IMG/VR virus record: IMGVR_UViG_3300027907_000002
Location: 6,752-70,751 of that record
Length of the DNA: 64,000 bases
Origin: a virus
Reading direction: 5' to 3' (one strand)
Positions within the stretch are counted from its first letter, which is position 1. Each line of letters opens with the position of its first letter. Shown here piece by piece: positions 8,062 through 63,219 of the stretch. The notes under the pieces were generated by a model, which saw only the letters and a list, made by a program, of their open reading frames with translations, was not told where the DNA came from and searched no databases. The position numbers and the translations under genes are program-made.

Positions 8062-8586
8062 CTACCTGTTATTCGTACTTTGCAATTCATTTCGCAGGGC
8101 CTCCAATTCTCGTTTAGCTTGGTCTCTTTCTTCAAGAAGCTTATCTAGAAACGATTGAGCTTCATAGCCTGAGTTCCACACTGCGCAGAGTATCTCATAA
8201 CTTTTATACGGGTTGAGATTCTTGGAGTCATTGTCTAGACAAGCTGCAATACCCTCCAAGTAGGCCTCGTCTACCGCATTGGCGTGGGCAAGTTTACCTT
8301 GGAGGTCTTGGATCTTTTTGTCCTTTACTGTTAGGAGTTCTCTGAATGAGTCCGGTTTGTTGGATAGCCTTTCTATTTGCAGGGTAAGCTGGGAGTTTCG
8401 CTTAGACATTCGATCTAACTCTTCGAAGAGCTCCTCAGCAATGGATTCGGCTACGTTGGCGAAGTAGTCTATAGCCTGATGGGATACTCCACCCTCGCAT
8501 AGTTCGTCATCACACGGTAACAGTTCCTCATCGTCGTCCACCACTGCTTGGTAGAAGGCAGCTCGGAATTCTTTTGGTGAAGTCAT
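8062..8586 (-). CDS. coiled-coil hypothetical protein
   Basis: AYLEG...NPY...WNSGY motif between coiled coils. Confidence 0.55.
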   Translation of the reverse strand: MTSPKEFRAAFYQAVVDDDEELLPCDDELCEGGVSHQAIDYFANVAESIAEELFEELDRMSKRNSQLTLQIERLSNKPDSFRELLTVKDKKIQDLQGKLAHANAVDEAYLEGIAACLDNDSKNLNPYKSYEILCAVWNSGYEAQSFLDKLLEERDQAKRELEALRNELQSTNNR

Positions 8587-13363: not shown

Positions 13364-14344
13364 TTAGTCCTCCTTGATGTAGCCCCAGCCTCTTGCGTAG
13401 AGTTCTGAGTAGTCATCTATGGATTTCTCGTCGTCTACCTTTGTGAGCTCCTCGGATCGACCAACACCGTACTCCCCCCGAGCATAGTTATACTCGCGGC
13501 TCTCCCTCGAAATCCCACGGTAGTCCCTGTTCTCCTCCCACCACCTTGGCCTTTCGTCGTTTCTTGCCCCGCTTCCCACCGTCACGTACCCTCTTCCTCC
13601 CAGAGGATACTCCACGGGGCGAGGCTTTGGGAGCTGTTCAATAATAGGCCTCCCATCCTTACCAAAGATATAAGGCCTGACTATCAGGGATTTCTCCTTC
13701 AGTCCGAAGCTGCACTTTCCTTCCTTCTGGAGCTGATAACGATTCGATCCCGGTCCTGGTTTGTAGTTATCGCAGTCTCCCAGCGAATTGACGGTGCTCT
13801 CCTTAAACTTGAGGTCGTGCGCCCTCACGACATCCACCTTATAGGGCCAGTCAGGCATCCCCGAAGGAACAACGCCAAACCTAACCACCGCTAGACTCCC
13901 ACACTCCAAGATCACCCGGCCTTCCGCTTGCATCCCGAATCCCATGCTGTATTCGTAGTCGTCTTTCATCTTGGACGAAATAACTATAGAGCAAGGGAAC
14001 CGGGAATTCACTCCATCCAGAGCCTTGTCGGTCCCTGAGAAAAAAGCTCCCATAGAATGATGAGAGTGGACCACACCCACTATCTCAGGACGGATCTTAT
14101 CAGGAATATCCTTATCGTCCACGTCACATGATCCGTGAGTGCGCTCTTGGACTCTTGGAACAAAGAGCTGTTTTACTTTGACCTCGAAGCCATCTTTAGA
14201 GGCCGTTCCCAAAAGAATAGCCAGCCATTCCAGGCGATCCTCTGCAGCACCCGCGAACCACCCTAAAATCTCAGGGTCTATCTCAATTCTCCCCTGACAC
14301 TCCTTCACTACCGGGCAGCTCGACACTGTTGATTGAATGAACAT
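13364..14344 (-). CDS. JAB/MPN+ metallopeptidase (prokaryotic Ubl protease)
   Basis: EWLAILLG...VGVVHSHHSMGAFFSGTD matches E...HxH-x7-S-x2-D. Confidence 0.9.
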   Translation of the reverse strand: MFIQSTVSSCPVVKECQGRIEIDPEILGWFAGAAEDRLEWLAILLGTASKDGFEVKVKQLFVPRVQERTHGSCDVDDKDIPDKIRPEIVGVVHSHHSMGAFFSGTDKALDGVNSRFPCSIVISSKMKDDYEYSMGFGMQAEGRVILECGSLAVVRFGVVPSGMPDWPYKVDVVRAHDLKFKESTVNSLGDCDNYKPGPGSNRYQLQKEGKCSFGLKEKSLIVRPYIFGKDGRPIIEQLPKPRPVEYPLGGRGYVTVGSGARNDERPRWWEENRDYRGISRESREYNYARGEYGVGRSEELTKVDDEKSIDDYSELYARGWGYIKED

Positions 14345-14936
14345 CGTCTTGATTTCCTCTCTGAAGAGCAGGGAAGTTCCACTGATCCTCGATAAATTCG
14401 TTCTCTTCTAAGACCTTTCGTACCGCCCGAGCGCCGATGCCTCCAGCTATAAACGACACATCGAGATCGGGCATCATCTGATAACCACCTGGAGCTCCTT
14501 CTACATCGAAAGGTACTCCAGGAGAAACTGTTACTATTCCGAGACCATCATAACTAACACGGAGATACTTTCCGTTAGCGAGACGGATCATATTCAAAAG
14601 AGCCTCTCGATCGGAGGTCTTCATGTCTGTGCAGTCTACAAAGAGAGTCTCGGTTTCGGTGCGACCCCTTAGATAGCTGGGTTCCAAGCGTTTGTCTATA
14701 GGAGTTATATAGCGGTCTCCCATCTTGTGACTAACAAAATCAGCCAAAAGATCTACCTTCTTAGCTCCTACCAGTGTACGAGGCATTCGAAAGTGACCGT
14801 TCCCTGTTACTCCTATATCGTCGTCGTCCCACACCTCAACTTGAATCCCCGCTGCTATATCTCGCATAAGCGCTATCGTGAGCCAGAACCCCACACCGCC
14901 AGCTCCTATGATTACTACCTTTTTTATCTCAGTCAT
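14283..14936 (-). CDS. ThiF/E1-like adenylating enzyme
   Basis: VVIIGAGGVG, VWDDD, KKVD, FVDCTD...R; start MTEIKK has an RBS and overlaps the E2 stop. Confidence 0.88.
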   Translation of the reverse strand: MTEIKKVVIIGAGGVGFWLTIALMRDIAAGIQVEVWDDDDIGVTGNGHFRMPRTLVGAKKVDLLADFVSHKMGDRYITPIDKRLEPSYLRGRTETETLFVDCTDMKTSDREALLNMIRLANGKYLRVSYDGLGIVTVSPGVPFDVEGAPGGYQMMPDLDVSFIAGGIGARAVRKVLEENEFIEDQWNFPALQRGNQDDVHSINSVELPGSEGVSGEN

Positions 14937-15897
14937 TGTGCTCCCCCTCATCGCAGTTGTTGCATAAGATACCCTCTTCCGAGACGGTATTCTCGCACTC
15001 GCATCTATCACAACTGCAATACCAAATGTCCATAGGATAACGCTCCCTGCAAGAAGCGCACTTCTTTTCTATGACCTCTGAGACCTTTTTGTTATAGCCA
15101 CACCAGTTGCAAACTGTAGTAGCGCATGCTGTTAGGCAGAGATTCTTTCGGTTGAGATCCTTTAGCTGGAAGGTTTGTCCACAACCAGCACACTTCCTAT
15201 CTATGCGCTCTCTGCAAGGCTGGCAGACTTTTCCTTCTGGATGATTGCTTAGTGACGTGGAATTCCAGAGTTCATCACAGTGAGGGCACCTCTGGGCATA
15301 TGCGGGGAAACAAGGTTCGCAGTAAAAACCTCTCCTCTCGTCCATTGAAGGGTCTCTATCCGCAAAACAAGCGTAGCACTTTGTAGCTTTTGCTAGAGTG
15401 TCACATTCCTCTATACATACCCTCTTAGAACTATAGACAAAGGGTCCCATAGCCGAAGCTGATTTAGTTACTCCGCACAGAGCACAGGTAGACTTAGGAA
15501 AAGCCTTACATACATCCGCGTGACCTACTTCCTGTAACCACCTATTAACATCATGGTATGGGTTACCATAACTTATAGACGCAAATAGAGCCGCGTCAGC
15601 AGAAGTAGCTGAGCCTTTACAGATTTGACTACCTGAAACGTGTGGATGGGCGTGAGTGAACTTAGGGAAAGCGTTATTTCCATTCAGGTCCCACAAACCC
15701 AGCAACCTATAAAGTCGCGTATCCACCATCCAAATCAACCTAGTCTCGTCCCACTCTCCACACTTGGGACAGAGAAAAGGAGGATTTACGAATACCTGGA
15801 TGCCATTTTTAAGCTGCCATCCATCGCTCTTTAACAGAGCTTCTTGGCGAGCCTTGGCTTCCTTGACTCGATTTAAAAGCGAAGTCGGATCTTGCAT
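14929..15897 (-). CDS. E2/UBC-like protein fused to multiple Zn ribbons
   Basis: HAHPHVSGSQICKG (HP[NH]V...IC catalytic motif) plus about a dozen CxxC-type motifs; adjacent to E1 and JAB. Confidence 0.7.
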   Translation of the reverse strand: MQDPTSLLNRVKEAKARQEALLKSDGWQLKNGIQVFVNPPFLCPKCGEWDETRLIWMVDTRLYRLLGLWDLNGNNAFPKFTHAHPHVSGSQICKGSATSADAALFASISYGNPYHDVNRWLQEVGHADVCKAFPKSTCALCGVTKSASAMGPFVYSSKRVCIEECDTLAKATKCYACFADRDPSMDERRGFYCEPCFPAYAQRCPHCDELWNSTSLSNHPEGKVCQPCRERIDRKCAGCGQTFQLKDLNRKNLCLTACATTVCNWCGYNKKVSEVIEKKCASCRERYPMDIWYCSCDRCECENTVSEEGILCNNCDEGEHND

Positions 15898-15909
15898 TTT
15901 TCCTCCTTT

Positions 15910-16446
15910 CTAGATCTCCATAACGATCCAAGCGGTTCCGGTTTCGTTGATGTCCACAGATCTACCATCGTGATCTCGCCACCTTAGATCCTCGGGTTCA
16001 CCATCCGGAGCCACATTGTATAAACCAGCTTCTTTCAGTTCTTTGGTGTGAAGAGCTATCTTGCGAACTGGACGCCCTGCGTGCGAATAAGCTGTGGCAG
16101 TCCTCACACCTGTTTGAGCTTGAGTTCGCATTCCCTCGATCATCTGTTCAATAGCTTCTATGATCTCAGGATCGGAAGCCAGCAGAAAGAAATCCGCGAT
16201 GGCCATTAAAGCTGCAGGACCCCAAATAGGCACCGGTATATCCGGATCTCCATCCACATAAAGATCGCTGGTTGTCATCGTCCAGTAGTTTCCAGTGCCT
16301 ACTCTGAGGGTCTTGTCGTTTTTCCAAATCAAACAGTATAACCCTGGCCAGTGACAACGCTCGAATCTTGAGCTGGCCAAGAGAAACTGCTTTACAGAAG
16401 CTTGATTAGCTAAATTAACACTCTCAGGCCTAGCTGAAAGTCTCAT
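15910..16446 (-). CDS. hypothetical protein of the Ubl operon
   Basis: AAGGAG RBS before MRLSARP; lies between the Ubl candidate and E2. Confidence 0.65.
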   Translation of the reverse strand: MRLSARPESVNLANQASVKQFLLASSRFERCHWPGLYCLIWKNDKTLRVGTGNYWTMTTSDLYVDGDPDIPVPIWGPAALMAIADFFLLASDPEIIEAIEQMIEGMRTQAQTGVRTATAYSHAGRPVRKIALHTKELKEAGLYNVAPDGEPEDLRWRDHDGRSVDINETGTAWIVMEI

Positions 16447-16534
16447 GGGAGTTCTCCTTTTTTGTTTACGAAGGTAGCTTGAAAAAGGTCGTCCAAACAT
16501 ACCTCCCTCAAACGTTGGATAGACAATCATAGAA

Positions 16535-16578
16535 CAAAGAGGAGAAAGACCCCCTTTAAAGGAATCTTCCTCCCCTCT
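16535..16578 (-). terminator. hairpin/terminator right after the Ubl candidate
   Basis: GAGGGGAGGAAGATTCC-TTTAAA-GGGGGTCTTTCTCCTC followed by TTTGTT on the minus strand. Confidence 0.5.
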
Positions 16579-16581
16579 CCC

Positions 16582-16905
16582 TTAGAAGCCAGCCTTGGCC
16601 TGATAGACCGGAGTTACTTTCTGGTTGGGCTCCAGAAGCCTCTCCGAACCATCCGTGTTATAGAGCTTCGGAGAATCCACCGAAGTAATCAGCTCCGCAG
16701 CCTTACCAGGAGTCTCCAGTTTGAAGGCGTGAGATGCGGTCGTCTTGGACTCCCGCATGATCTGCTTGATGTGGCCGATGATCGAGATCGTCTCACCGTT
16801 CTCAAATGTAACCTGCTGGATGTCTCCCTCGACGTTGGTCATTTTGCCTTCGTTGTCGAACTGAACACCCGTAAGAGCTCCATCAATGCGCATTGCGTTA
16901 CCCAT
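16582..16905 (-). CDS. candidate ubiquitin-like modifier (pro-form ending ...QAKAG-F)
   Basis: 107 aa, beta-rich, penultimate Gly, AAGGA RBS, first gene before E2-E1-JAB. Confidence 0.6.
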   Translation of the reverse strand: MGNAMRIDGALTGVQFDNEGKMTNVEGDIQQVTFENGETISIIGHIKQIMRESKTTASHAFKLETPGKAAELITSVDSPKLYNTDGSERLLEPNQKVTPVYQAKAGF

Positions 16906-29769: not shown

Positions 29770-30368
29770 GTGAAAAATCATAGCACCGCTCTATTGACAA
29801 ACGAATTTATTATCGGACGCATTTTAGGTTAAATGGTCATACCAATTTCAGCTCCGATGTTGAGAGTCGGTTCACCATACTAGTCGCCCGGTTCCCCTCT
29901 CCGGTTACCCACCCTCGGAGCGATGTCACTCCCCAGCGAACAGCGCGTCAGCGCGGTGAGCGGTGCCCTGGCCAATCCGTTCATTAGAGATAGTTAGACA
30001 TCCTATATATAAGATAGGGTATACCGGTAGTCAGGTAGTCCGGTCTTTAGGTCTTACGGAGGACTTGGCGCGCCGTTGGATGTCGCTCCCAGGCTTAGTT
30101 GTCGCGAGGCGGGGGAGATGAAGCGCACGGGAGCGCTACGATATTACAAAAAATTTTTTTTTATTAGATGGGTCAAAAGAGGGCTATGTAGCATTCTACA
30201 TAGGGTCTGGGCTATATAACTAGAATAGTAACAATGGCGCGCAGATTTTAAGGAAAAGTGACCAGAATCGCGGTCTGAACGCGGAGAGACGGCGCAGCCC
30301 AGGAAAAAGTTCTTCCTTCCTTTTATAGATTTCCCTCTCGGCTTACCTGCGCTTCACGCTAGCATGTC

Positions 30369-43366: not shown

Positions 43367-44587
43367 ATGTCGAACTTTTTGATTTATTCGAACAAGCTGC
43401 GGCAGTGGGTCCGATCTCTGTCTCCGGAACAAGCTCAAGATTTTATCAATGATGCTTGGAGAGATATTCGAGAAGCTTATGATCAGTGGAGCTTCTTGGA
43501 AGCCGAGGAATATTGGCTTGCTCCTGCTGCACTAACTCTCACAGGACTAGGTGTTACTCAATTCGGGTTCAATGTTACTCTGAGTCACAGCGCTCTGTTA
43601 CAGATAGCTGGACTCAATAACCCTCCTATCACTCAGCGCCAGATCAAGCTTGGAGTGCAGGGAGGTCCTATCTATGAGATAGCTTCTACGGATGCAGTTC
43701 AGGTGTCTGGTGGGGCTATCAACAGCGCGGCTACTCTATTAACTGTGGCTTCGGCTCCCTTTACTGTTGCCGATGTCAACAAGAAGATAATCATAGCGGG
43801 AGCGGGTGTAGGTGGAGCGAATCTCGAAACAACCATAGCTTCTTTTGTTAGTCCTACTCAAATCAACACTGCGCTGGCGGCTTCGACTACGGTCCTAAGC
43901 GCAACTGTGAGTTATGGTTCGATAATAACCCTGGGCAGGATGTTCGCAGAGACCACCACTAGCAGTACAACTGGTCTCCTTTACCGAATCTACTACTCCC
44001 CCTTAACAACGGACTTCAGAAGACTCGACCACATAACAGATGTCATCACGGGGTATCCCTTTGGTTTTCTGGGAGAGATCGAACCTGTTGGTACTCTCGA
44101 CCAGATGGACCCTTGGAGATCCGCAGTTACTGAACCTTATCGAATCTTCTTTCATCACTACGACCAGACCACGAAGCTCCCAGTGTGGGAACTCTGGCCC
44201 GGTCCAACGGTCCAACGCGCTTATAAAGTAACTTTTATGCGCCAAGGTCAAGCGTTCTCAGCTAGAACAGACAGCCTTCCGCCAACCCTAACTGAAGAGC
44301 TGCTTCTAGTTAGAGCTAGATGGTTGGCTTATGAGTGGGCAGCGGCGAATGATCCGGACCCGAAAAACAAAGCGCAGTACTCGGGCCTTATGCAAACTAC
44401 AAAAGCGCGCTATAGTACTCAGGGCCAACCAGGGCGCGAGCTAGGTCTACTTGATCAAGCGATCAAGAACGACGAGGACATATCGACTCTTCAGGGCAAA
44501 AGGCGTCCTCCTCGATCAGGTCCTGGTTGGCCTGTTGACAGCAACTTCCTTCAAAGCCACGCCTTCCCAGGTTGGTGGAGGGGATAA
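43367..44587 (+). CDS. head-tail adaptor/tail tubular-like protein with beta insertion
   Basis: FINDAWRDI...WSFL...ELWPGP pattern. Confidence 0.6.
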   Translation: MSNFLIYSNKLRQWVRSLSPEQAQDFINDAWRDIREAYDQWSFLEAEEYWLAPAALTLTGLGVTQFGFNVTLSHSALLQIAGLNNPPITQRQIKLGVQGGPIYEIASTDAVQVSGGAINSAATLLTVASAPFTVADVNKKIIIAGAGVGGANLETTIASFVSPTQINTALAASTTVLSATVSYGSIITLGRMFAETTTSSTTGLLYRIYYSPLTTDFRRLDHITDVITGYPFGFLGEIEPVGTLDQMDPWRSAVTEPYRIFFHHYDQTTKLPVWELWPGPTVQRAYKVTFMRQGQAFSARTDSLPPTLTEELLLVRARWLAYEWAAANDPDPKNKAQYSGLMQTTKARYSTQGQPGRELGLLDQAIKNDEDISTLQGKRRPPRSGPGWPVDSNFLQSHAFPGWWRG

Positions 44588-49042: not shown

Positions 49043-52000
49043 GTGGCAGAATACATTCCTAAACCCCAAGTCTTTATCAAGAAGGGAATGAGTGTCTCTC
49101 AACCAGGGGACCGCCTGACGGGTGAGTATTTCCAGTACGTTCAGAACGTTCGCTCTTACAAGAGAGGTGAGTGGAGACAGCGACCAGGAATGTCTCGCTT
49201 GTACCCTAGTATTTCGAATCCCATATATTACGTAACCAGAATAAACAATGACATTGACTCCACTTTCAGAAGGGTGGTCGCGGCGAACAACGCTGGAACT
49301 GGAGATCTTTACGTTGATGACGCGGGGCATATAGCCCTGGGTCTAGTTGATACGGGATACTTTCCTACTCAGTTTTCGAGTGTGGTATCTCGACCTGACA
49401 GATCCCCGTTGCCTTATTTGTTCATAGCTAACTCGCTTAGAAACTCGAAGATCTCCACTTCGGGCGTGAGAACAGAGTGGGGCATTTCTGCTCCTCTTTC
49501 GGCTCCTGTTGTGGAGCCTCAAGGTCTTAACTATCTGGCGTTGGCGAACCTTACTTCTACTGCTGGGTGGACTCTAACAGGAGGAATTGCTTTAACATCT
49601 GGTAGCACATCAGAAACTGTACTCGCTGTTTTGTATGATTCGGGCTCTACTGGGATGGCCACTATTGGACTTACCTTTACAGCTCCGTTAGTTATTCCAG
49701 TTGTCGATGGAGTTATTCAGCTAGTTAATTCGTTAGCTCAGAGTGAGACTTGCTTTATTCTGGAACACTGCCCTCCTATTTCTCCTCCCATTGGTCTTAG
49801 TAGCGCAGTTATAGCAGATATATCTTACGATTCAGGAACAACGGGACCTTGCACAATTGTCTTCACTGGATTGGGATCTGGAATAAAAAGAAATGCTATT
49901 CTTAGGTTGGATACTGGGGGACTCTCCCAGGAAGACGTAAGAGTTCTTTCGGTCACCACTGCTATAGATGGTACTCCTTCGATCCGGTGCTCTACTGTCA
50001 ATACTCATAGTGCTGGACAGCAAGTAAACGGTATTGCATCTATAAGAGTATTTACTGTCTTTACTCATACCACTGCTAGCACAGCTACGCAGTCCAGATT
50101 CAATGTTAATCTTGGAGGGTTTGTACCTACTTCCATTTTGTCTACTACGTTGAATCTGAATCTAACTCAGGCTCCTACCTCGTCGGGTGGATCACCTAGT
50201 TCTAGGCTGATAAAGGCTAATGATTATTTAAATGTATCCATCCTTGATGACTTTGGCGCTCTTGATGAGATCCAGATTCAGTTTGATACGATTGGCGTAA
50301 CGTTCAATCAAGATTACTACTATGTAAGTATTAGGCAGTCAGACCTAGCTGGATCGTACTTTCTATCGAGCCAATCTATTCTGGCTCAGCAAATACAGCT
50401 TGGCAGAGAGCAGTTAGATAAGATTGTAAAGAAGGACAAGGAGATAATTATTTTTCCTCCTTCTATTGGGGAGCTAGGGGATCTTGGTCCGTCAGACACA
50501 GACGCTACCACTCAGTACTTTGGACTCCCTACCAGTATAGCTACTGACCAAGGCCCTGTAACTACTTCTACTCCCTCGAAGGTTGGAAGGCTTGATCTGC
50601 AGATTCCGATCAGCCAGTTCCAGCACGTTAAGGGGGGAAGCCAGGGATCGCTTCAGAATATTGTTGGAGCGAGAATTGTTTTTAAATACAACTCGGGATC
50701 CACTTTAGTACTCGGGCCTAGTCTGTGCGCTTTCTCTATAGGGGGAACCTACGAACCCAACACTAAGGATCTTCCTTCTTATACTTATGTTTATAGGGGC
50801 AGAAACACTAGCACTGGATCAAGATCGAATCCCTCACCTCCGATTCGATTCCCGGTAGAATCCATAAGAAGACGTACCTTAGTTACTGTTGCAGCTCATC
50901 CGGATTCACAGGTAGACGTAATTGATATATTTAGGATGGGAGGAACTCTAACCAACTACTACATGATAGGAACCTTGCCAGTAGGCACTACTACCTTCGA
51001 GGATAACACTCCTGATTCGGTGGCGGTTAGGAATCCTATTCTGGAGGTAGATAGGTACAAACCTTGGATTAGCGCAGATGTTCCTAAGTCTGGAATATGT
51101 AATGTAACGGGAACAAGTGTTACTCGTGTTAGTGGGGATACCTTTAATACTGGATGGGTCAGGGGTACTCAGATTCAGATAGATGGTAAGGTCTACACCC
51201 TGTATACCAATCCATCGTCTACTACTAGATTGGAGCTTAACGAGTCTGCAGGATTTGGAACCAATCTTAGGTTCAATATTCAAGAGCCGGTTCTGGATGG
51301 TAGAACTTATCCTGCGGTCTTCGGACCCTTTTCTGGAGCGAGTGGAGAGTTTATATTTGTAGTGGGAGATCCTCGGAATCCAGGTTATCTATACTGGACT
51401 AATGGAAACGATGTTGAATCTACCTCTGACGTAAATTCTCTAGAGTTGTGCCCTCCCTCTGAGACCCTGATGAATGGGGTGGTTCTGAATGGGATACCTT
51501 TCTGTTTCTCGGATATGCGATCCTGGAGAGTTCTTCCTTCGTTCCAGGGTGGGCAATCAGGCTCAGGTAGCTCGTTCTATCCGCAAGAGACCACGATGGG
51601 CCGGGGACTAGTGGGGAGATATGGGATATGTGTAGGGGATGCGATTTATTTTGTGTCCTTCGACGGGGTGTATCGAACCCGAGGAGACGCGCTTGAGAGC
51701 CTCACAGATGACAGTCTTGCTCCGTTGTTTGATAGGGATGGGACCTTCATAACCGACTTCACGGTTCCAGTGTCCCCGATAGACTTTACATCTCCGGATG
51801 ACATCTCTCTGACTTACTCATTTGATGGACTCTATCTTACCTTTAAGGCTAGAGATACTAACTTCTACACCTTCTTTATGTCATTCTTTACGGGAGGGTG
51901 GGTTCTGGATTCGATCGGTACGGGAGCTATTATCAGGTCTTCAAGAGAGCTGAGGACTCAAGACGCGGATAATGTGCTGGTGGGAACTTCTACTGGAAAG

Positions 52001-53002
52001 GTAATGATCCGTAGCAACTCCTCTTTCCTAGATGACACTGACCCTATAAGCGGAAGGATATGGGATAGAGAAGAGATCTGGGATAGCCTTCGCTACACTA
52101 AACAAGTAGGAGACACTATGCTGGACATAGATCCAGCAGGAGCTACTATTACTCCTACTATGAGGTACGAGAACAATACCTCCAGTGATATTCTAAGTAA
52201 CATAACCGGAAGTGGGAGAGATCAATTTGTACGTGACATCAATTCAGGATCAGGTCGAATTGTTAGGGGAGCCGCTATGGATCTCACCTGGGCCGACGCG
52301 ATCTCCGGACCACCAAAGTTCTATGCTTGGGAACCTAGTGGTTTACTCAAAGCCGAGGAGAGCGTCAATAGGGCCACTGATTGGGATGCAGGCGGATACC
52401 CTGGAACTAAATGGCTGCAAGGATTCCGACTCAAGGGAGACACCCTTGGACTAGCTAAGGCGTTTCAGGTGGAGATAGACGGAGGAACTTTCGTCGAATC
52501 ATTCAGTCTTACAGCAAGTGGTGAACAGGTCACCACGTTCTGGCTGACGACTCCGGTTGTGGCGCACGAATTCAGAATCAGAGGAGCCGATGGGGACCTC
52601 TGGCGAAATATGGGAGTAGAATGGGTATTTGAGCCAGAGCCTGAGCAGGCTGCTGTATGGGAGACACAAGTCACCTCCTTTAACCTACCCTTCTTCTCCC
52701 ATATAAGAGAAGTGATGATAGCCCATAGGAGCACTACAGATATTACAATGAGTGTAATAACGGATGGGGTGAGTAATAGTTATCCTATACCGAATGGGGG
52801 AGGAAACCGGATTAGGTCTTATCTCCCCGTCCTGGCCCTCAAGGCTAAGTATCACAAGTTCAGATTCACCTCTAGTCAGCCCTTTGGTCTATGGATAAAC
52901 GACATAGAAGTAAGGGTTGGGGCCTGGGGGAGATCTGATCCTTACACTATTCAAAGGCCCTTTGGTGACATCAGTAGGGCTAATGGTGGAGCTAGGTTAT
53001 AA
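49043..53002 (+). CDS. tail nozzle/stabilisation protein (P22 gp10-like, with insertions)
   Basis: QNVR...RQRPG N-motif, beta-propeller-like repeats, 1319 aa. Confidence 0.7.
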   Translation: MAEYIPKPQVFIKKGMSVSQPGDRLTGEYFQYVQNVRSYKRGEWRQRPGMSRLYPSISNPIYYVTRINNDIDSTFRRVVAANNAGTGDLYVDDAGHIALGLVDTGYFPTQFSSVVSRPDRSPLPYLFIANSLRNSKISTSGVRTEWGISAPLSAPVVEPQGLNYLALANLTSTAGWTLTGGIALTSGSTSETVLAVLYDSGSTGMATIGLTFTAPLVIPVVDGVIQLVNSLAQSETCFILEHCPPISPPIGLSSAVIADISYDSGTTGPCTIVFTGLGSGIKRNAILRLDTGGLSQEDVRVLSVTTAIDGTPSIRCSTVNTHSAGQQVNGIASIRVFTVFTHTTASTATQSRFNVNLGGFVPTSILSTTLNLNLTQAPTSSGGSPSSRLIKANDYLNVSILDDFGALDEIQIQFDTIGVTFNQDYYYVSIRQSDLAGSYFLSSQSILAQQIQLGREQLDKIVKKDKEIIIFPPSIGELGDLGPSDTDATTQYFGLPTSIATDQGPVTTSTPSKVGRLDLQIPISQFQHVKGGSQGSLQNIVGARIVFKYNSGSTLVLGPSLCAFSIGGTYEPNTKDLPSYTYVYRGRNTSTGSRSNPSPPIRFPVESIRRRTLVTVAAHPDSQVDVIDIFRMGGTLTNYYMIGTLPVGTTTFEDNTPDSVAVRNPILEVDRYKPWISADVPKSGICNVTGTSVTRVSGDTFNTGWVRGTQIQIDGKVYTLYTNPSSTTRLELNESAGFGTNLRFNIQEPVLDGRTYPAVFGPFSGASGEFIFVVGDPRNPGYLYWTNGNDVESTSDVNSLELCPPSETLMNGVVLNGIPFCFSDMRSWRVLPSFQGGQSGSGSSFYPQETTMGRGLVGRYGICVGDAIYFVSFDGVYRTRGDALESLTDDSLAPLFDRDGTFITDFTVPVSPIDFTSPDDISLTYSFDGLYLTFKARDTNFYTFFMSFFTGGWVLDSIGTGAIIRSSRELRTQDADNVLVGTSTGKVMIRSNSSFLDDTDPISGRIWDREEIWDSLRYTKQVGDTMLDIDPAGATITPTMRYENNTSSDILSNITGSGRDQFVRDINSGSGRIVRGAAMDLTWADAISGPPKFYAWEPSGLLKAEESVNRATDWDAGGYPGTKWLQGFRLKGDTLGLAKAFQVEIDGGTFVESFSLTASGEQVTTFWLTTPVVAHEFRIRGADGDLWRNMGVEWVFEPEPEQAAVWETQVTSFNLPFFSHIREVMIAHRSTTDITMSVITDGVSNSYPIPNGGGNRIRSYLPVLALKAKYHKFRFTSSQPFGLWINDIEVRVGAWGRSDPYTIQRPFGDISRANGGARL

Positions 53003-57045: not shown

Positions 57046-60000
57046 ATGGCTGAAGAAATCTTTGAGCAAGATCTTATTCCGGTTCCGGACGACGAGATCG
57101 ACGAGACGACTCTCGTACCAGTTGGAGTGCGTCCGAAGAAACCTACCAAGCTTCCTGTAGACAAAAGACAAGTCTTTACTCCAAAGCTTCCCGAGCAGCC
57201 TTTTGGGAAGTCTACCTTTAAGTTTGAGACTACTCCGTTTAGAGAGACCCCTGAGTCTTATCAGTTGAGATCTGCGGAGAAACCTTCCGGACAGGAGAGG
57301 CTTCGTAGAGAAGAGATGCTTGCGGCTAAGAGAGGCCAGCAACTGAAGTCGGTTAGACAAGCTACTCCTCTAGAAGCTAAAGAACTAACAAGCGCGCAAA
57401 GTGAGCAGGATATTTATGATAAGTTTGGACCTGCTGCTTATGCTACCAGGAAGGGACTAGTTAATTTAGTTAGTGGCTTAGGGGAGCCTTTTACTCAGTC
57501 TGCCGGAGAATTTGCATCTATACCGGGCGATGTTGGTTCTCTATTGGAATCTGGGATAGGGGAGCTGGGTCGTAGGCAGGATTCCCGAGACAGAGCTAGA
57601 CGACTTGAGATTGATAGATATGTCATTAAGAGACCCGAGTCTCTTTTTGAGAAGGCTCTTCCCTCGGCTATAGAAGTTGGCGGGCAGATGCTTATCAATC
57701 CTAGACTACCAAAACAGGTAGGTTCAGGATTTCGTCCACCTCCGGATCTAAAAGCGCCTCCAGTTCCAAAACAACTTCCTCCTGGTCCTACGACTCCAGG
57801 ATCTCGATATGCTTCGAGAGGTTCGCAGCCTACGTATGCCCCAAGCGCTACTGGGATGGAGTTTGCTCTTATACCATCTCTTCGTCCAGGTAAAGCTCCC
57901 GTTATGATGGTGCCTACTTGGGTTATGGAAGTGGCTATTCAGGGAGATCCATCTGATACTACAGGCTTGAATCTTACTATGAATGAGATTCCTAGCTTGA
58001 TAGACGACATAGCGAGATCTCAAGCTACTCCACAACAGAAAGATGAAGCTATTTCTCAATTAGATACGATATTCAAAGCTTCTAGATCTGAGGGTCTCAA
58101 CACTATTTCTCTGCTCAACCACGGGTTTGATAGACAAACTCTAGCTGGAACTATAGCTCACGAGACTTTTCACTCGGGCCAGAGTAAAGCGGCAGAGTTG
58201 TCAGTGCCTAAAGAAATCGACAGGCAGGTTGGGGCAGCAGATCTTCATGATCCTCTATGGGCTCAGGACCTACCTGTTATTAAATCTCTTTTGAAGAATA
58301 ATCCCGGCTTGGCTGAAGATATGGGCGCTTCTGGAGAGATGACTGCGGCGGATATTCTGGCAGTAGAACTCCCTGCATATGTGATGGGAGGAGAGACTTT
58401 TAGATTCTTCGCTACACCCGCTGATGGAATAGATCATCTATTCAATTACTTTATGCACGTTGCGGATCGCAATGGCGTAGAGGCTCTAGATATAATCGAG
58501 AGAACTGCAACTATCCGAGAGGGCCTGGAGGATGCTATCCCTCTCGCAAGGAGTATGTATGAGAATTGGCAGCGAGAACGAGCTCAACGAGACCTCACAA
58601 AGACTATCTCCGAATCCCCAGGGCTACGCGAACTTGGGAGTACTAGCACAGGCTTACAAGGAGCTCAGACAGGAGGGGCTGAGTCACGATCAGGCCAGGG
58701 AACAACTCTTGCCGCTCGCTCGGGATCTCCAACAACTAGCGAACAATCCACAGTCCCAACCTTCTACTCCCAACTTGAGCGAGTAGTAAGCGAGAAGTTC
58801 CCGAATAGAATGTCCGCTGAGCAAGCTATGTCTACTCTTATGGACCCATCGAGAGGTATTAAGAGAGACGAATATGATCTTAGCGGGCTGGATGAGTTAA
58901 TAGCTAGTAAAGCTGTAAAGGGAGAACAAGTAACTAAGGATGAGTTACTTGATGTTATTCGGACTAACAGCGTTAAGGTAGATGAAGTAGTTTATGGTCA
59001 GCAAAACTATAAGAAGGCTGCGGAGTTAGATAGACAGCTTCAGCGAGTTGAGTCTGATATAGATAGCTATAACAGAGAGTATGAGAGAATAAACGAACTC
59101 TGGAATGAAGTCTATAGAGGAGGCAGTCCAGAAGAACTCGACTTCGTAAATAAGGAGATAGACCGAGTAGGCCAACAGATAGATGACGCTATAAACATGA
59201 GGGGTCATCTAAGAACAGAGATACGAAAGGTACAAACTGCGGCTCCTCATTCTAACTGGAAAGCTTTGAAGGGAGGTATTCCAGGGACTGATAGAGAGGT
59301 CGTTATGACCTTACCTGCTGCGCCTCTCAAGAAAGGGGCAGATGATATTGATAGATTTGTAAGAGCGGTCGATCCAGCAAAAAAGATTTATAAGTCAGGT
59401 CACTATCCAGACGTAGAGAATCCTGTAGTTCACTTTCGTCTAGACGAAGGACTGGATGCAGATGGACAAAAGGTTCTTCGAGTTCAAGAGATTCAAAGTG
59501 ATTGGCATCAGAAAGGAAGGGAAGCTAGATATGATACAGAGGAAACAAGATCTCGTATTCAGCAAATAAAAGATAGAATTAGTCAGATAGAAAGGCAAAT
59601 CCAAAGATCTACTTATGATGAGATTGCTGAACTAAATAAGGAAAGGAGGTCTCTTCGATCGCAATTGGAAGACATTGAAGAATCATCTTTAGTTCCTGAT
59701 GCTCCATTCAAACAGTCCTGGCCAGATCTAGCCTTCAAGAGAATCCTTCGATGGGCTGCAGATAATGGCTTTAAGAGAATAGTGTGGCCAAAGGGGTCTC
59801 AGCAGATTGATCTCTACAATGACACTCTTAGACAGAATGTTAAGAAGATAGGTTGGGCAGCAGATAGGGATGGAATACATCTTTATCCAAGTAAAGAAGA
59901 TGATCCTTTTGGTGATGTAGGTTCTTATCACGAAAGTTTGCAGAAGCTCAAGCCTAAAAGAGTTGAGGAGTTACTGGGTAAAAATATCGCGGAGCAAATC

Positions 60001-63000
60001 TTCTCTAAAATAGACGAGGATGGTTTTGGAGAAGGAGTTATAGAAGGAGAAGGACTCTCTATAGGGGGACAACTTCACAAGTTTCTCTACGACCAAAAGC
60101 TCCCACAGATTGCTAAGGACTACGCGAAAAAGTTCGGTAGCCAATATGGCCTAACCAAAACTAGCGGCTCTATGCCGGGTATCCAACTTACCTTTAGACA
60201 ACAGACACCTAATTTGTATGTTGCTACTTTGTTTGATGGAACTGAGGTTGAGGTTTTTAGAGATCCAGAATATGGATGGGCTGCGGGTGATAGATCAAGT
60301 GATCCTCCTTCACTTTATGAAACACAGAAAGAAGGTTTTGCAACTGCAGATACTTTCGAAGAAGTTATAAGCAAGTTACAGAGAGATGAACTTGTTTTGA
60401 GAGATGCAATAAATCCCTCTCAAGAAGCTCACTACCTAGACATCTCTCCAAAACTATCGGAGACTGCAAGAACTCAAGGCTTTAGACTTTTCGCTAAGAC
60501 CAATATAGGAGATCTAGTAAAGGTAAAGGGTTATAGCGCTCAGGCCGAAGTAGTAGAAGCAGGCGACGAACCTGGAACAATGAAGGTTCGCTTTGAGAAT
60601 GGAACTATTGATGAGTTTGACGTGGAGGATCTCAAGTCTAAGGGACCAAAAGTAAAAGATCCAATGATCAAGACCCTCCAGCAGAATCCTCCTACACCTC
60701 CACCGGATGCTGGAGCAGAAGTCTATGGTCCAAGACCTCCTCTTAGAACCGAAGTTATCTCGACTAGTTATCAAGAAGCTATAGCTAGAAAGTTCGTTGA
60801 GTTGATGCAGCAAGAGAAGCTAGATGTGGACTTGACTGATCCTCCATCGAAACAGATCTACGAGGCGTTGGTAGCTGGAGACCTGAGAGAAGCTGACGTT
60901 GACGCTATCCTAAAAGAAGAGGGAGTAAGCTGGGAAGAATTCATAAACGATCAGTTGATGAGCTACTCGAAGGCGGGGAGAGATCTATCAATATTGTCTA
61001 GGCTAGAGCGTAACTTGGAGAGAATGCTCAAGAACGAACCTGAGAAGTTCTCCAAGTATGTAGCTCCCAAGAAACAGATGGATGTTATTCTGAAGTACCT
61101 CAACCGATCCGTGTTAGGTAGAAGTCTTTGGAGTAGGTACGGTGGGTTAGTACAGAAGATGGTACTTACTAAGCTTACTACAGCTTTAGTTAATACTAGA
61201 ACTACTATGGCTAGAGCTGCGGCTGACGTTGCAGCAGAGGGCCTCGGCGCGTGGATGCAGTCTATGGCCGAAGGGAAAGGACGATTTCGAGAGAGAGTAA
61301 CTGAAGCTAACGAGAATGCGGTTGATGCTATGGCGGCTACTTGGGAAGTAGTTCGAGCTCTTAATCCAGGACAACTAGAAGCTCTCATAAACAAAAACAA
61401 GGGCACAGCTTATCAACGTCAGCAGGAGATCATAAATCAGGTCGAGAAGTTCTTTCCGGACATTCACGCTAAGTTGTTTGCTAGGCCGGTATCGGGTGAG
61501 ACTAAGGAGAAGGTAGACGCGGAGAAGTATATCCTTCTAGCTAAGAGTCTTCTCCCAAGAATCAAGAATGCATCAACTAGAAGGGATTTCAATAACCAGA
61601 TCCAAGTATTTTCGAAGAGACTGCAGTTCGAGAAGAAACTTTTAGGTAAGGTTACCTTACGTGGGCCCGAGATCGCCTACGATACAATGCTTATTCCCTT
61701 GCAGTTCGCGGAGTTTCTGTTTAGGAGACCTAAGTTTATTGGGCGGCTTAGGCTAGAACTAATGGATAGAGGGATTGATCTTGATGAAGTGTTAAGACAG
61801 ACAGGTCTTACCAAGGATGAGCTAGAGTTGATAGATCCCAAGGATAGAATGGCTTTCAAGGATATTCCTGAAGAAGCTATTAGGTCTTCCCTTAATAATA
61901 CTCTGGACCTAACCTATGCCTATGATCCTTCGACCGACAAAGAAGCTCCAGTAATGGAGAGAGCTGCAGCTTACTTTATTCGAATGATGAACGCTGCGGG
62001 GCCTGGAGCTATCTTAGGAGAGTTGTTCCCGAGAGCTCTTTATAATGGGATGAAGACTCTCTATGAGTACTCCCCGGCTCCCTTTATGACCGCAGCTCCT
62101 GCTATAGCTTTTGGCTACGAATCGAAATCGCCCATAGCTAAAATTTTGAGACCTCGCTACGATGAGGACCCTAAGACTAAGACTCCCTACCGAGTGAATC
62201 CTCCTACGAGGTATGACTGGGAGCGCTTAGCTAAGGCTATGGTAGGGTCTCTTATGTTGTTCGTGGCGTGGGATATGATTCGCCAGGGTGAGATGGGTGA
62301 TGAGTGGTGGCAGCTTGGAGATAAGAGTAAGAAAACTAAAGATGGTAGGCCTGTTTATGTGGATGTACGAAAGGACAAATCCTTCTCGGAGTACTTCCAT
62401 ATGGCTAGCTTAGCTGAGCGTTATAGAAGGGGTACTATAGGAGACAAGCAACTTGGGAATGAACTATTGGAGATCTATACGGGTATTCGGCGTACTGATG
62501 CCAGTCCTGATTTTATAGATACGATCAATGCTGCGGGAGAACTCTTTGGAGCCACCGGCGCAACTGAGGGTCGTAAGCTAGCGATGATAGAAGCTGGAGG
62601 AAGAACTCTGGCTATACCTTTCACTCCCCTTCTTAACGTGAGAGATGTCTGGGCGGGATTCTCAGAAGAGGAGAACCGGCTCAAGGACACTAGGGGAACT
62701 TGGTATGGTCCCATCCAAGACAAATTCCCCTTTTGGAGAAGGAGTCTCCCCGATATGACTTCTCCGATCGAACCTTCTCCAATGCAGATCTCTCAAGACC
62801 CAGATCTGTTAATGTCTTCAGGTGTGCAACTTACAGCGGGTCCTAATTTTGCGGGCCAAGAGTGGCAGCGTCTGGGACTAAACTACAAAACTTTCCTCGA
62901 AAGAGATCCTGACCCTACTATAAATAGGGCTCAGAATATATACTTTGAGCGCGAGATTAGCAGACTCGGAAAGTTTCTAGAGACTCTCCCCTTCTATACT

Positions 63001-63219
63001 GAGGGGGATGATGATGCTAAGAAGGCAATCTGGGAAGCTTACATAGAAGGTGACGAGGGTCTTGCTTCTCAGGCTTCTCAGTTCGCGTCGTTGGCTAATC
63101 CTGGTGAGGCAATGAAACGCCAAGCTCAAGGTAAGATGCCGGGACGCCATCAAAGAAAGTATCTGGGTCTGGATAAGGTTCTGAAGCAGATCAAAGACTT
63201 CGGGGAGGAACGGCAGTGA
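57046..63219 (+). CDS. large injected polyvalent-type virion protein
   Basis: 2057 aa; AHETFH zincin motif, LRVQEIQSDWHQ motif, KOW/SH3-like segment, helical C-half. Confidence 0.75.
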   Translation: MAEEIFEQDLIPVPDDEIDETTLVPVGVRPKKPTKLPVDKRQVFTPKLPEQPFGKSTFKFETTPFRETPESYQLRSAEKPSGQERLRREEMLAAKRGQQLKSVRQATPLEAKELTSAQSEQDIYDKFGPAAYATRKGLVNLVSGLGEPFTQSAGEFASIPGDVGSLLESGIGELGRRQDSRDRARRLEIDRYVIKRPESLFEKALPSAIEVGGQMLINPRLPKQVGSGFRPPPDLKAPPVPKQLPPGPTTPGSRYASRGSQPTYAPSATGMEFALIPSLRPGKAPVMMVPTWVMEVAIQGDPSDTTGLNLTMNEIPSLIDDIARSQATPQQKDEAISQLDTIFKASRSEGLNTISLLNHGFDRQTLAGTIAHETFHSGQSKAAELSVPKEIDRQVGAADLHDPLWAQDLPVIKSLLKNNPGLAEDMGASGEMTAADILAVELPAYVMGGETFRFFATPADGIDHLFNYFMHVADRNGVEALDIIERTATIREGLEDAIPLARSMYENWQRERAQRDLTKTISESPGLRELGSTSTGLQGAQTGGAESRSGQGTTLAARSGSPTTSEQSTVPTFYSQLERVVSEKFPNRMSAEQAMSTLMDPSRGIKRDEYDLSGLDELIASKAVKGEQVTKDELLDVIRTNSVKVDEVVYGQQNYKKAAELDRQLQRVESDIDSYNREYERINELWNEVYRGGSPEELDFVNKEIDRVGQQIDDAINMRGHLRTEIRKVQTAAPHSNWKALKGGIPGTDREVVMTLPAAPLKKGADDIDRFVRAVDPAKKIYKSGHYPDVENPVVHFRLDEGLDADGQKVLRVQEIQSDWHQKGREARYDTEETRSRIQQIKDRISQIERQIQRSTYDEIAELNKERRSLRSQLEDIEESSLVPDAPFKQSWPDLAFKRILRWAADNGFKRIVWPKGSQQIDLYNDTLRQNVKKIGWAADRDGIHLYPSKEDDPFGDVGSYHESLQKLKPKRVEELLGKNIAEQIFSKIDEDGFGEGVIEGEGLSIGGQLHKFLYDQKLPQIAKDYAKKFGSQYGLTKTSGSMPGIQLTFRQQTPNLYVATLFDGTEVEVFRDPEYGWAAGDRSSDPPSLYETQKEGFATADTFEEVISKLQRDELVLRDAINPSQEAHYLDISPKLSETARTQGFRLFAKTNIGDLVKVKGYSAQAEVVEAGDEPGTMKVRFENGTIDEFDVEDLKSKGPKVKDPMIKTLQQNPPTPPPDAGAEVYGPRPPLRTEVISTSYQEAIARKFVELMQQEKLDVDLTDPPSKQIYEALVAGDLREADVDAILKEEGVSWEEFINDQLMSYSKAGRDLSILSRLERNLERMLKNEPEKFSKYVAPKKQMDVILKYLNRSVLGRSLWSRYGGLVQKMVLTKLTTALVNTRTTMARAAADVAAEGLGAWMQSMAEGKGRFRERVTEANENAVDAMAATWEVVRALNPGQLEALINKNKGTAYQRQQEIINQVEKFFPDIHAKLFARPVSGETKEKVDAEKYILLAKSLLPRIKNASTRRDFNNQIQVFSKRLQFEKKLLGKVTLRGPEIAYDTMLIPLQFAEFLFRRPKFIGRLRLELMDRGIDLDEVLRQTGLTKDELELIDPKDRMAFKDIPEEAIRSSLNNTLDLTYAYDPSTDKEAPVMERAAAYFIRMMNAAGPGAILGELFPRALYNGMKTLYEYSPAPFMTAAPAIAFGYESKSPIAKILRPRYDEDPKTKTPYRVNPPTRYDWERLAKAMVGSLMLFVAWDMIRQGEMGDEWWQLGDKSKKTKDGRPVYVDVRKDKSFSEYFHMASLAERYRRGTIGDKQLGNELLEIYTGIRRTDASPDFIDTINAAGELFGATGATEGRKLAMIEAGGRTLAIPFTPLLNVRDVWAGFSEEENRLKDTRGTWYGPIQDKFPFWRRSLPDMTSPIEPSPMQISQDPDLLMSSGVQLTAGPNFAGQEWQRLGLNYKTFLERDPDPTINRAQNIYFEREISRLGKFLETLPFYTEGDDDAKKAIWEAYIEGDEGLASQASQFASLANPGEAMKRQAQGKMPGRHQRKYLGLDKVLKQIKDFGEERQ

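Follow-up and report, generated by a model that had tools for sequence, protein, structure and literature searches.

A set of five genes at positions 13364-16905 of a virus genome seems likely to encode a minimal ubiquitin-like (Ubl) conjugation pathway that belongs to the phage itself. The stretch analysed, here called the window, comprises 64,000 bases (bases 6752-70751 of the 70,751-base IMG/VR record IMGVR_UViG_3300027907_000002), and the five genes are co-oriented open reading frames (ORFs) on its minus strand. Read along that strand, they encode a small protein with a glycine close to its end (the tag), a conserved protein of no known family, an E2 candidate with a cysteine-rich tail, a small ThiF/E1-like adenylating enzyme (mini-E1) and a JAB/JAMM metallopeptidase (Table 1). 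An initial annotation, made from the letters of the window, had described this co-oriented set and its gene order. The ORFs were found at these positions, the gene-by-gene reading held up, with E2 as probable, and the JAB, ThiF/E1 and E2 motifs it had named were all present. Other viral contigs carry these five families too, arranged in the same order. The identities of JAB and E1 and the relation between tag and E1 are well supported, and that of the E2 is probable.

The product of the last gene belongs to the JAB/JAMM metallopeptidase family, a solid assignment at the level of sequence. It scored 29.9 bits (E 5.5e-7) on the Pfam Prok-JAB model PF14464, whose cut-off is 25. The JAMM motif E...HxH x7 S xx D, noted earlier as E...HSH...S..D, was invariant in 8 of 8 aligned homologues (E39, H93, H95, S103 and D106). 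Scanning the JAB protein against viral contigs returned no relatives.

Judged by its family profile, the mini-E1 is a member of the ThiF/E1 superfamily. A profile of 33 family sequences matched TcdA (6.6e-7), ThiF (8.6e-5), Cap2 (1.3e-4) and MoeB (6.4e-4) in the PDB, with E-values ranging from 6.6e-7 to 7.5e-4. There were 119 homologues at E ≤ 0.001, between 184 and 279 amino acids long, 25 of them with a precomputed ThiF domain, and the E1 of a distant cassette relative (L012) reached 75 bits on Pfam ThiF. Residues G11, G13, G14, V15, G16, D37, D39, R50, K60, D101, D104, R126, S128, Y129, D130 and Y152 were invariant in all 33 sequences; C102 and T103 of the DCTD motif were near-invariant (at least 90% of the 33), as was V127 of RVSYDG. 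The conserved glycine loop, Asp, Arg, Lys and DxxD would correspond, residue by residue, to an adenylation site. Canonical E1 enzymes need a catalytic cysteine. The sole conserved cysteine in the 33 sequences is C102 of DCTD, and the window E1 has no other, so the mini-E1 would be unable to form the usual E1 thioester. The ThiF/E1 call that had been made from GAGGVG and DCTD thus stood for the superfamily, with motifs conserved across the 33 sequences, but the enzyme is a single domain without catalytic cysteine, unlike the E1s of Bil and of CBASS (anti-phage signalling based on cyclic oligonucleotides).

The tag has a penultimate glycine, as had been claimed, and this type of ending is shared within the cassettes. 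An [AG]G-x(1-2) C-terminus was found in 9 of 9 cassette-linked tags compared with 21 of 714 other ORFs of the same loci; the endings were AGF, AGI, AGC, AGV, GGM, GGD, GGLR and AGLR. The cassette-linked tags are 63-107 amino acids long. An exhaustive HMMER search of 1.84 billion representatives gave a family of 11 proteins at E ≤ 0.001. Homologues stood in the cassette position in L002, L008, L003/4, L009, L005, L007, L010 and L015, and downstream in L006. From a reading of the alignment by eye, the shared core would run from a helix through a hairpin and a DSPxL-like loop to a last strand and the tail, and the shortest members (63-64 amino acids) seem too short for a full beta-grasp. The tag had no match to a Pfam family over the cut-off, nor to any Pfam Ubl family, and a scan of its alignment (A3) against viral contigs gave no result.

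Among the checks proposed by the initial annotation was multimer modelling, which was run for E1 and tag on our own alignments. The median interface score (ipSAE) was 0.64, with a spread of 0.63-0.74 over three runs, and the best of three controls scored 0.00. This passing score may mirror likeness to the solved E1-Ubl complexes that exist rather than binding. Of solved complexes, 58 of 80 attained the mark, as did 2 of 110 mismatched pairs; with our own alignments, the counts are approximate here. Contact agreement between runs was at least 85%, and the predicted local distance difference test score (pLDDT) of the partner was at least 69. Tag residues 100-107, 55-61 and 72-80 were predicted to contact E1 residues 11, 13-16, 102-104, 126-130 and 150-153. 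In the model, the last eight residues of the tag (100-107) lie against the P-loop/glycine loop, DCTD, RVSYD and GGYQ of the E1. The tag is therefore predicted to behave as an E1 substrate, with its tail in the nucleotide pocket.

For the gene that separates tag and E2 candidate, M29 (16446) is the likely start, with an AAGGAG ribosome-binding site 7 nt before the ATG; the N-terminus of the 206-residue ORF ahead of M29 diverges in the relative L002. Its product had no match in Pfam, PADLOC, PHROGs or NCBIfam. A held-out hidden Markov model (HMM) applied to 723 ORFs found the gene between tag and E2 in L006 (5e-17), L005 (5e-13), L010 (1e-10) and L007 (4e-9), and it was present in every full cassette. 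The protein represents a new, conserved family, and we can only guess at its role, either as a specificity factor or as a target. L002 was the sole relative of the E2 candidate from the metagenome scan, at 93% identity. Compared with L002, the ratio of nonsynonymous to synonymous polymorphism (pN/pS) was 0.15-0.23 for the tag, the 178/206-residue gene and the E2 candidate, the three genes comparable over their full length in that relative.

Partial overlaps between the genes had also been proposed. The overlap of E1 and JAB (62 nt) was confirmed, but an overlap of the E2 candidate and E1 genes would require E1 to begin at the GTG at 15011. The tag gene is separated from the next one by a gap of 51 nt, and within it, at window positions 16540-16555 (minus strand), lies a terminator-like hairpin followed by a T-rich run; it is a consensus match only. 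This hairpin could make tag transcripts more abundant than those of the enzymes.

Table 1 Coordinates of the cassette features in the window.
Feature	Position	Strand	Description
Tag	16582..16905	-	ORF, 107 aa, ending ...QAKAGF; candidate modifier and E1 substrate
Conserved cassette protein, no known family	15910..16446	-	178 aa from the likely start M29; full ORF to 16530, 206 aa
E2-like N-terminal domain of the 322-aa protein (residues 1-135)	15493..15897	-	CxxC 43-46, HPH 84-86, Cys93-x-Gly95, His126, Cys130
Cys-rich tail of the 322-aa protein (residues 136-322)	14929..15492	-	About six CxxC...CxxC zinc-ribbon-like units, read from sequence
Mini-E1, single-domain ThiF/E1-like adenylating enzyme	14283..14936	-	217 aa from the ATG at 14936; ORF to 15011
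JAB/JAMM metallopeptidase	13364..14344	-	326 aa; catalytic domain about residues 24-125 (13970-14275), followed by a C-terminal region of about 200 aa, fold unassigned

The 322-residue protein is quite probably an E2. In the N-terminal domain, W27, P39, C43, C46, H84, P85, H86, C93, G95, L104, W120, H126 and C130 were invariant among ten homologues. HPH (84-86), followed after 6-9 residues by C93-x-G95, was kept in 10 of 10, and this HPH-x(6-9)-C-x-G pattern resembles HPN...Cys, which we take to be the active-site signature of the UBC fold. C43, C46, H126 and C130 probably form a structural zinc site. The zinc-ribbon tail is of variable length, and 3 of 10 aligned homologues (L005, L007 and L010) lack it altogether, which marks it as accessory. 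An AlphaFold2 model of residues 1-135 from nine sequences (pLDDT 75.9, predicted template modelling score 0.64) shows its elements in a UBC-like order: a long helix at the N-terminus, six strands, the HPH loop, Cys93 and two helices. The full 322-residue protein, modelled from three close sequences, had a pLDDT of 34.3. When 48,161 chains were compared with VIA-align, E2/UEV enzymes made up 20 of the 50 matches listed, all weak. In the ESM Atlas, the best score for the E2 part was 0.86, and a Prok-E2_D cluster had rank 19 (0.80); both are leads only. Other searches found few or no relatives. A word-index search returned three proteins (identity 100, 81 and 76%). Matches of the candidate and its homologues in Pfam were to zinc fingers only, below threshold. 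No match was obtained against PDB sequences or by tblastn against phages, and viral-contig scans with the E2 candidate protein and with A1 returned no relatives.

Several results weigh against a conjugation pathway. On its own, the window E1 scored 22.5 bits on Pfam ThiF, under the cut-off of 28.1, and it lacks the crossover-loop catalytic cysteine that defines thioester-forming E1s. Distant relatives of the tag, without known context, have the C-termini GKAF, GKAY or GKAA plus an acidic tail; the penultimate glycine is thus not invariant across the family, and the exact cleavage point may vary. The ESM Atlas model of the tag had a pLDDT of 0.46 and named no family. The E2 candidate and its ten homologues matched no E2 family profile at E ≤ 1 (UQ_con, Prok-E2_A to E and the PADLOC E2 models, in Pfam, PADLOC, NCBIfam and PHROGs). 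The E2 family profile reached a best E of 0.81 against the PDB, and Foldseek with the N-domain model found no match in the PDB or BFVD. The HPH and Cys of the E2 motif HPHV...IC of the initial annotation were nevertheless invariant.

These E2 results, and an E1 without a cysteine for canonical hand-over, would suit a real module of tag, E1 and JAB in which the 322-residue protein is not an E2 but a zinc-binding adaptor or substrate. CxxC, HxH and Cys93 would then be metal ligands, as every conserved residue concerned (C43, C46, H84, H86, C93, H126 and C130) could be, the remainder of the protein being zinc ribbons, and the E1 alone would pass the tag on, as MoeB/ThiF- or MccB-type enzymes do without an E2. 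We consider this unlikely, since H-P-H, 6-9 residues and G-x-[IVL]-C-x-G resemble the HPN...C of UBC, the gene always lies between tag and E1, and E2 enzymes are frequent among the weak structural matches listed.

The synteny survey that had been suggested as a check showed that the cassette recurs in viral contigs. When the E1 alignment was used to scan IMG/VR, 10 viral loci came up, whose neighbouring genes were typed by phmmer and held-out HMMs. A second IMG/VR scan, from the JAB side, gave 33 loci, of which 32 were analysed; all five families were present in eight of these, seven of them contigs already seen and one, L015, new. Tag, 178-residue partner, E2 candidate, E1 and JAB occurred in cassette order in L003, L004, L005, L007, L008, L009, L010 and L015. 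With the rearranged version included, the whole cassette was found in nine IMG/VR viral contigs. The rearranged cassette (L006/G002:C1; L006:3614-8349, G002:C1:64993-65553) has an extra 224-residue ORF between E2 and E1. Downstream of E1 in L006 come five small ORFs, followed by a tag ending in GAGLR. JAB lies at the opposite end of the linear record; we take the record to be circularly permuted and the neighbourhood to be the same. Three cassette-bearing records carry a terminase 50-62% identical to that of the window phage; no terminase was detected in seven other records, all rated 3-53% complete.

A pattern scan with the tag and E1 alignments of 185,579 species-representative bacterial and archaeal genomes gave no confirmed case, and it rests on few peptide patterns, so that absence is no proof. 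The E1 had no tblastn match in 72,556 plasmids. In phages, neither E1 (tblastn) nor the cassette region (blastn) had a match.

The E1-JAB pair is more widespread than the cassette. An E1 homologue lay close upstream of JAB in 31 of the 32 JAB-side loci, the exception (L032) being cut by the contig end. The 24 loci lacking the whole cassette (L022-L045), on contigs of up to 236 kb, kept the pair without the three other families. Eleven of them were inspected (for example L024:3615-6795 and L030:3797-6882). An upstream ORF of 70-123 residues, ending in ...PYEVAG or similar plus 0-6 residues, was present in 9 of 11, and all 11 had an ORF of 239-341 residues with an invariant F-x-HYH...C and near-invariant D, W and G around the Cys. 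L041 carries this larger protein in two tandem copies. Neither protein was recognised by Pfam (nine small proteins and the 301-residue protein of L024) or by a PDB profile search (A10). The hhalign comparisons were not significant for tag A7 with the small protein of L012, E2 A6 with the 284-residue protein of L012, or A6 with A10. By tblastn, the L024 301-residue protein had no match in phages, and a search with the L024 E1 gave generic MoeB/ThiF genes only.

The cassette belongs to a soil phage and is also kept in its relatives. The source record is a complete virus genome with direct terminal repeats and a completeness rating of 100%. From about 30 kb, its plus-strand arm encodes terminase, scaffold, major head and tail proteins by PHROG matches, which agrees with the phage origin assumed at the outset. 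Small genes that fall into no recognisable family follow one another along the minus-strand arm (1-30 kb). The closest cultured terminase relatives, from two Tunturiibacter phages, share just 30% identity. Phage DNA was present in rhizosphere metagenome runs; there was no RNA run among the runs listed. A search of the whole genome found no tyrosine or serine recombinase (integrase, resolvase), which is compatible with a virulent phage but no proof of virulence, and the phage is apparently virulent. A prophage-borne defence island was rejected as an explanation on this ground and since the pattern scan did not find the families in bacterial genomes. The place of the cassette among unannotated genes, in the arm opposite the structural genes, together with the failure to find an integrase, suggests that it acts during infection, on host or phage proteins. 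The initial annotation had put forward that it might modify factors of host defence or proteolysis, or undo host Ubl tagging through its JAB.

Further features of the genome were recorded. Gene orientation and GC/AT skew both change sign at about window position 30000, dividing the non-structural (minus) from the structural (plus) arm. The non-structural arm contains genes for tRNA-Asn (GTT) and tRNA-Tyr (GTA) at 22199-22432 (minus strand), and a 174-residue protein at 8062-8586 (minus strand) with a below-threshold match to ribosome modulation factor (RMF; E 6.8e-4, 20.1 against 27.9 bits). The structural arm has ORFs of 1319 and 2057 residues at 49043-53002 and 57046-63219 (plus strand). A 406-residue protein at 43367-44587 (plus strand) has a PHROG match annotated as pectin lyase activity (E 8.2e-12) and may be a tail-spike depolymerase.

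Among known systems, Bil is the closest in logic. As in the cassette, BilABCD has separate Ubl, E2, JAB and E1 genes, no E3, and a Ubl whose glycine is followed by a short extension (PMC10557695). Bil Ubls are described there as having a conserved glycine plus up to nine residues, an extension that blocks adenylation while present; it is presumably taken off by the deubiquitinase. The Bil E1 is a multidomain IAD-AAD-CYS protein with catalytic cysteine (PMC11601596), whereas that of the cassette has 217 residues, one domain and no such cysteine. The cassette also differs in gene order and in its fifth conserved gene, and is seen in viral contigs, not in bacterial defence islands.

With type II CBASS, the cassette shares an E1 domain, a Cys-containing E2 domain and JAB, and the E1 domain of Cap2 was among the PDB matches. 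Cap2 is one fused E1-E2 protein and conjugates the CD-NTase. Compared with Cap2/Cap3, the E1 and E2 of the cassette are unfused, there is a dedicated small tag, and the E2 candidate has no Cap2 model match. Among the five cassette proteins, PADLOC gave no CD-NTase model match and only weak matches to CBASS 'E1-E2' models, for E1 alone. The cassette is therefore no copy of Bil or Cap2/Cap3, the systems that the initial annotation had cited.

In Bub systems, Ubl is fused to E2, and E1 to JAB or E2; the E2 uses a catalytic serine, and a DUF6527 serine protease is present. In comparison with Bub (6E/DUF6527), the cassette genes are unfused and the E2 candidate has an invariant cysteine; none of the five proteins had a Pfam DUF6527 match at E ≤ 1. 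The likeness to Bub lies in the E1. The Bub E1 is described as lacking the crossover-loop cysteine, with a tyrosine, for an oxyester, as the sole invariant residue of the loop (PMC11601596). The Cys-less mini-E1 has invariant Tyr129 and Tyr152, both touching the tag in the predicted complex. The E1 architecture, the unfused genes, the cysteine kept in the E2 candidate and the lack of DUF6527 and CD-NTase matches among the five proteins led us to reject the cassette as a member of Bil, Bub or CBASS.

The best NCBIfam matches were to PRTRC models, PRTRC_ThiF for E1 (E 2.6e-5, 23.7 against 144.75 bits) and PRTRC_A for JAB (E 0.0068, 16 against 101.8 bits), with scores far under the curated cut-offs; PRTRC_B had no match in the phage genome. 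PRTRC is described as a multi-gene cassette of mobile elements whose function is unstudied (PMC13366799), found on integrative and conjugative elements and in a Burkholderia prophage (PMC3318190, PMC13366799). These related cassettes, and the anti-phage role of the studied bacterial E1/E2/JAB/Ubl systems, Bil and type II CBASS (PMC11601596), which the initial annotation had correctly cited as defence, could speak for the same biochemistry in a different service: a Bil-like defence or exclusion function that tags structural proteins of competing phages instead of serving host takeover or counter-defence. Such a role appears improbable. The pattern scan did not find the E1 and tag families in bacterial and archaeal genomes, nor did tblastn find E1 in plasmids, whereas defence cassettes usually occur in host genomes or islands too. 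Without an integrase or resolvase found, there would be no lysogen to benefit, and the cassette is kept across relatives whose terminases are just 50-62% identical.

MoeB-MoaD and ThiF-ThiS resemble the cassette in their small single-domain adenylase, a small substrate with C-terminal glycine and the predicted tail in the nucleotide pocket; they are sulfur-transfer pathways without E2 or JAB. That the tag is a ThiS/MoaD-type sulfur carrier, its thiocarboxylate serving cofactor, tRNA or DNA modification and JAB maturing it as in CysO/Mec, is very unlikely: the best solved or curated E1 matches (TcdA, ThiF and MoeB) are sulfur- or tRNA-pathway enzymes, the mini-E1 lacks a catalytic cysteine like MoeB and the phage has two tRNA genes, but the complete genome yielded no rhodanese, PP-loop ATPase or cysteine desulfurase family (the initial annotation had seen no sulfur-transfer genes nearby), a Cys-bearing E2-like gene and the fifth protein always accompany the cassette, and the tag varies in length and sequence.

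An earlier known pairing of Ubl domain and JAB in phages is that of lambda/T1 TAPI (Ubl) and TAPK (JAB plus NlpC/P60), as described in PMC1779556. TAPI and TAPK belong to a tail module without E1 or E2, for which only processing is thought of, whereas the cassette includes E1 and E2-like genes and lies in the non-structural arm. An Asgard virus has been reported to carry E1-like genes (10.1101/2021.07.29.454249). A term search of a jumbo-phage survey of 224 genomes (PMC7824862) gave zero occurrences of JAB, ThiF, Ubl or E1-like. No description of the cassette was found in the literature searched, which came closest with PRTRC in the Burkholderia prophage and the E1-like genes of Asgard viruses; it did not extend to the operon tables in the supplements of the papers on Bil and Bub, where phage-borne cases might be listed.

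As a conjugation pathway, the cassette could work in five steps. JAB would first trim the tag by removing the residue or residues after Gly106 (Phe107). The mini-E1 would bind the trimmed tag, its tail in the nucleotide pocket as predicted, and adenylate it. With no catalytic cysteine in the E1, the activated tag would go straight to Cys93 of the E2-like protein or pass via an invariant tyrosine, which could be Tyr129 or else Tyr152, placed in the loop that follows the RVSYDG strand; a tyrosine route would resemble the Bub E1 with its crossover-loop Tyr. The E2-like protein, whose HPH...Cys93 site sits on a domain likely held by the Cys43/Cys46/His126/Cys130 zinc site, would then give the tag to an amine of the target. 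The target would probably be chosen by the variable zinc-ribbon tail and the conserved 178-residue partner. Finally, JAB may also detach the tag.

More tentatively, and as a possibility that we hold to be less than probable, the phage would own a Ubl pathway with a Cys-less E1, a zinc-stabilised E2, a tag core of about 45-60 residues and a fifth component, used in lytic infection to tag host proteins for takeover or counter-defence and forming one branch of a much larger, undescribed set of phage E1-JAB cassettes. The conserved tag core of this size may be less than a full beta-grasp.

For Bil and type II CBASS, bacterial Ubl conjugation has been characterised as an anti-phage weapon, a role considered likely for Bub as well. 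A complete cassette in an apparently virulent lineage, not found in bacterial genomes, would reverse this picture, with the virus tagging proteins too. If true, this would parallel the use of host ubiquitin by eukaryotic viruses. It would also offer an E1 of about 190-220 residues without catalytic cysteine and an E2-like family missed by current profiles. The unusually small tags would give insight into the chemistry of a minimal pathway and possibly lead to compact tagging tools. The wider phage E1-JAB pairs suggest a whole class of overlooked phage functions.

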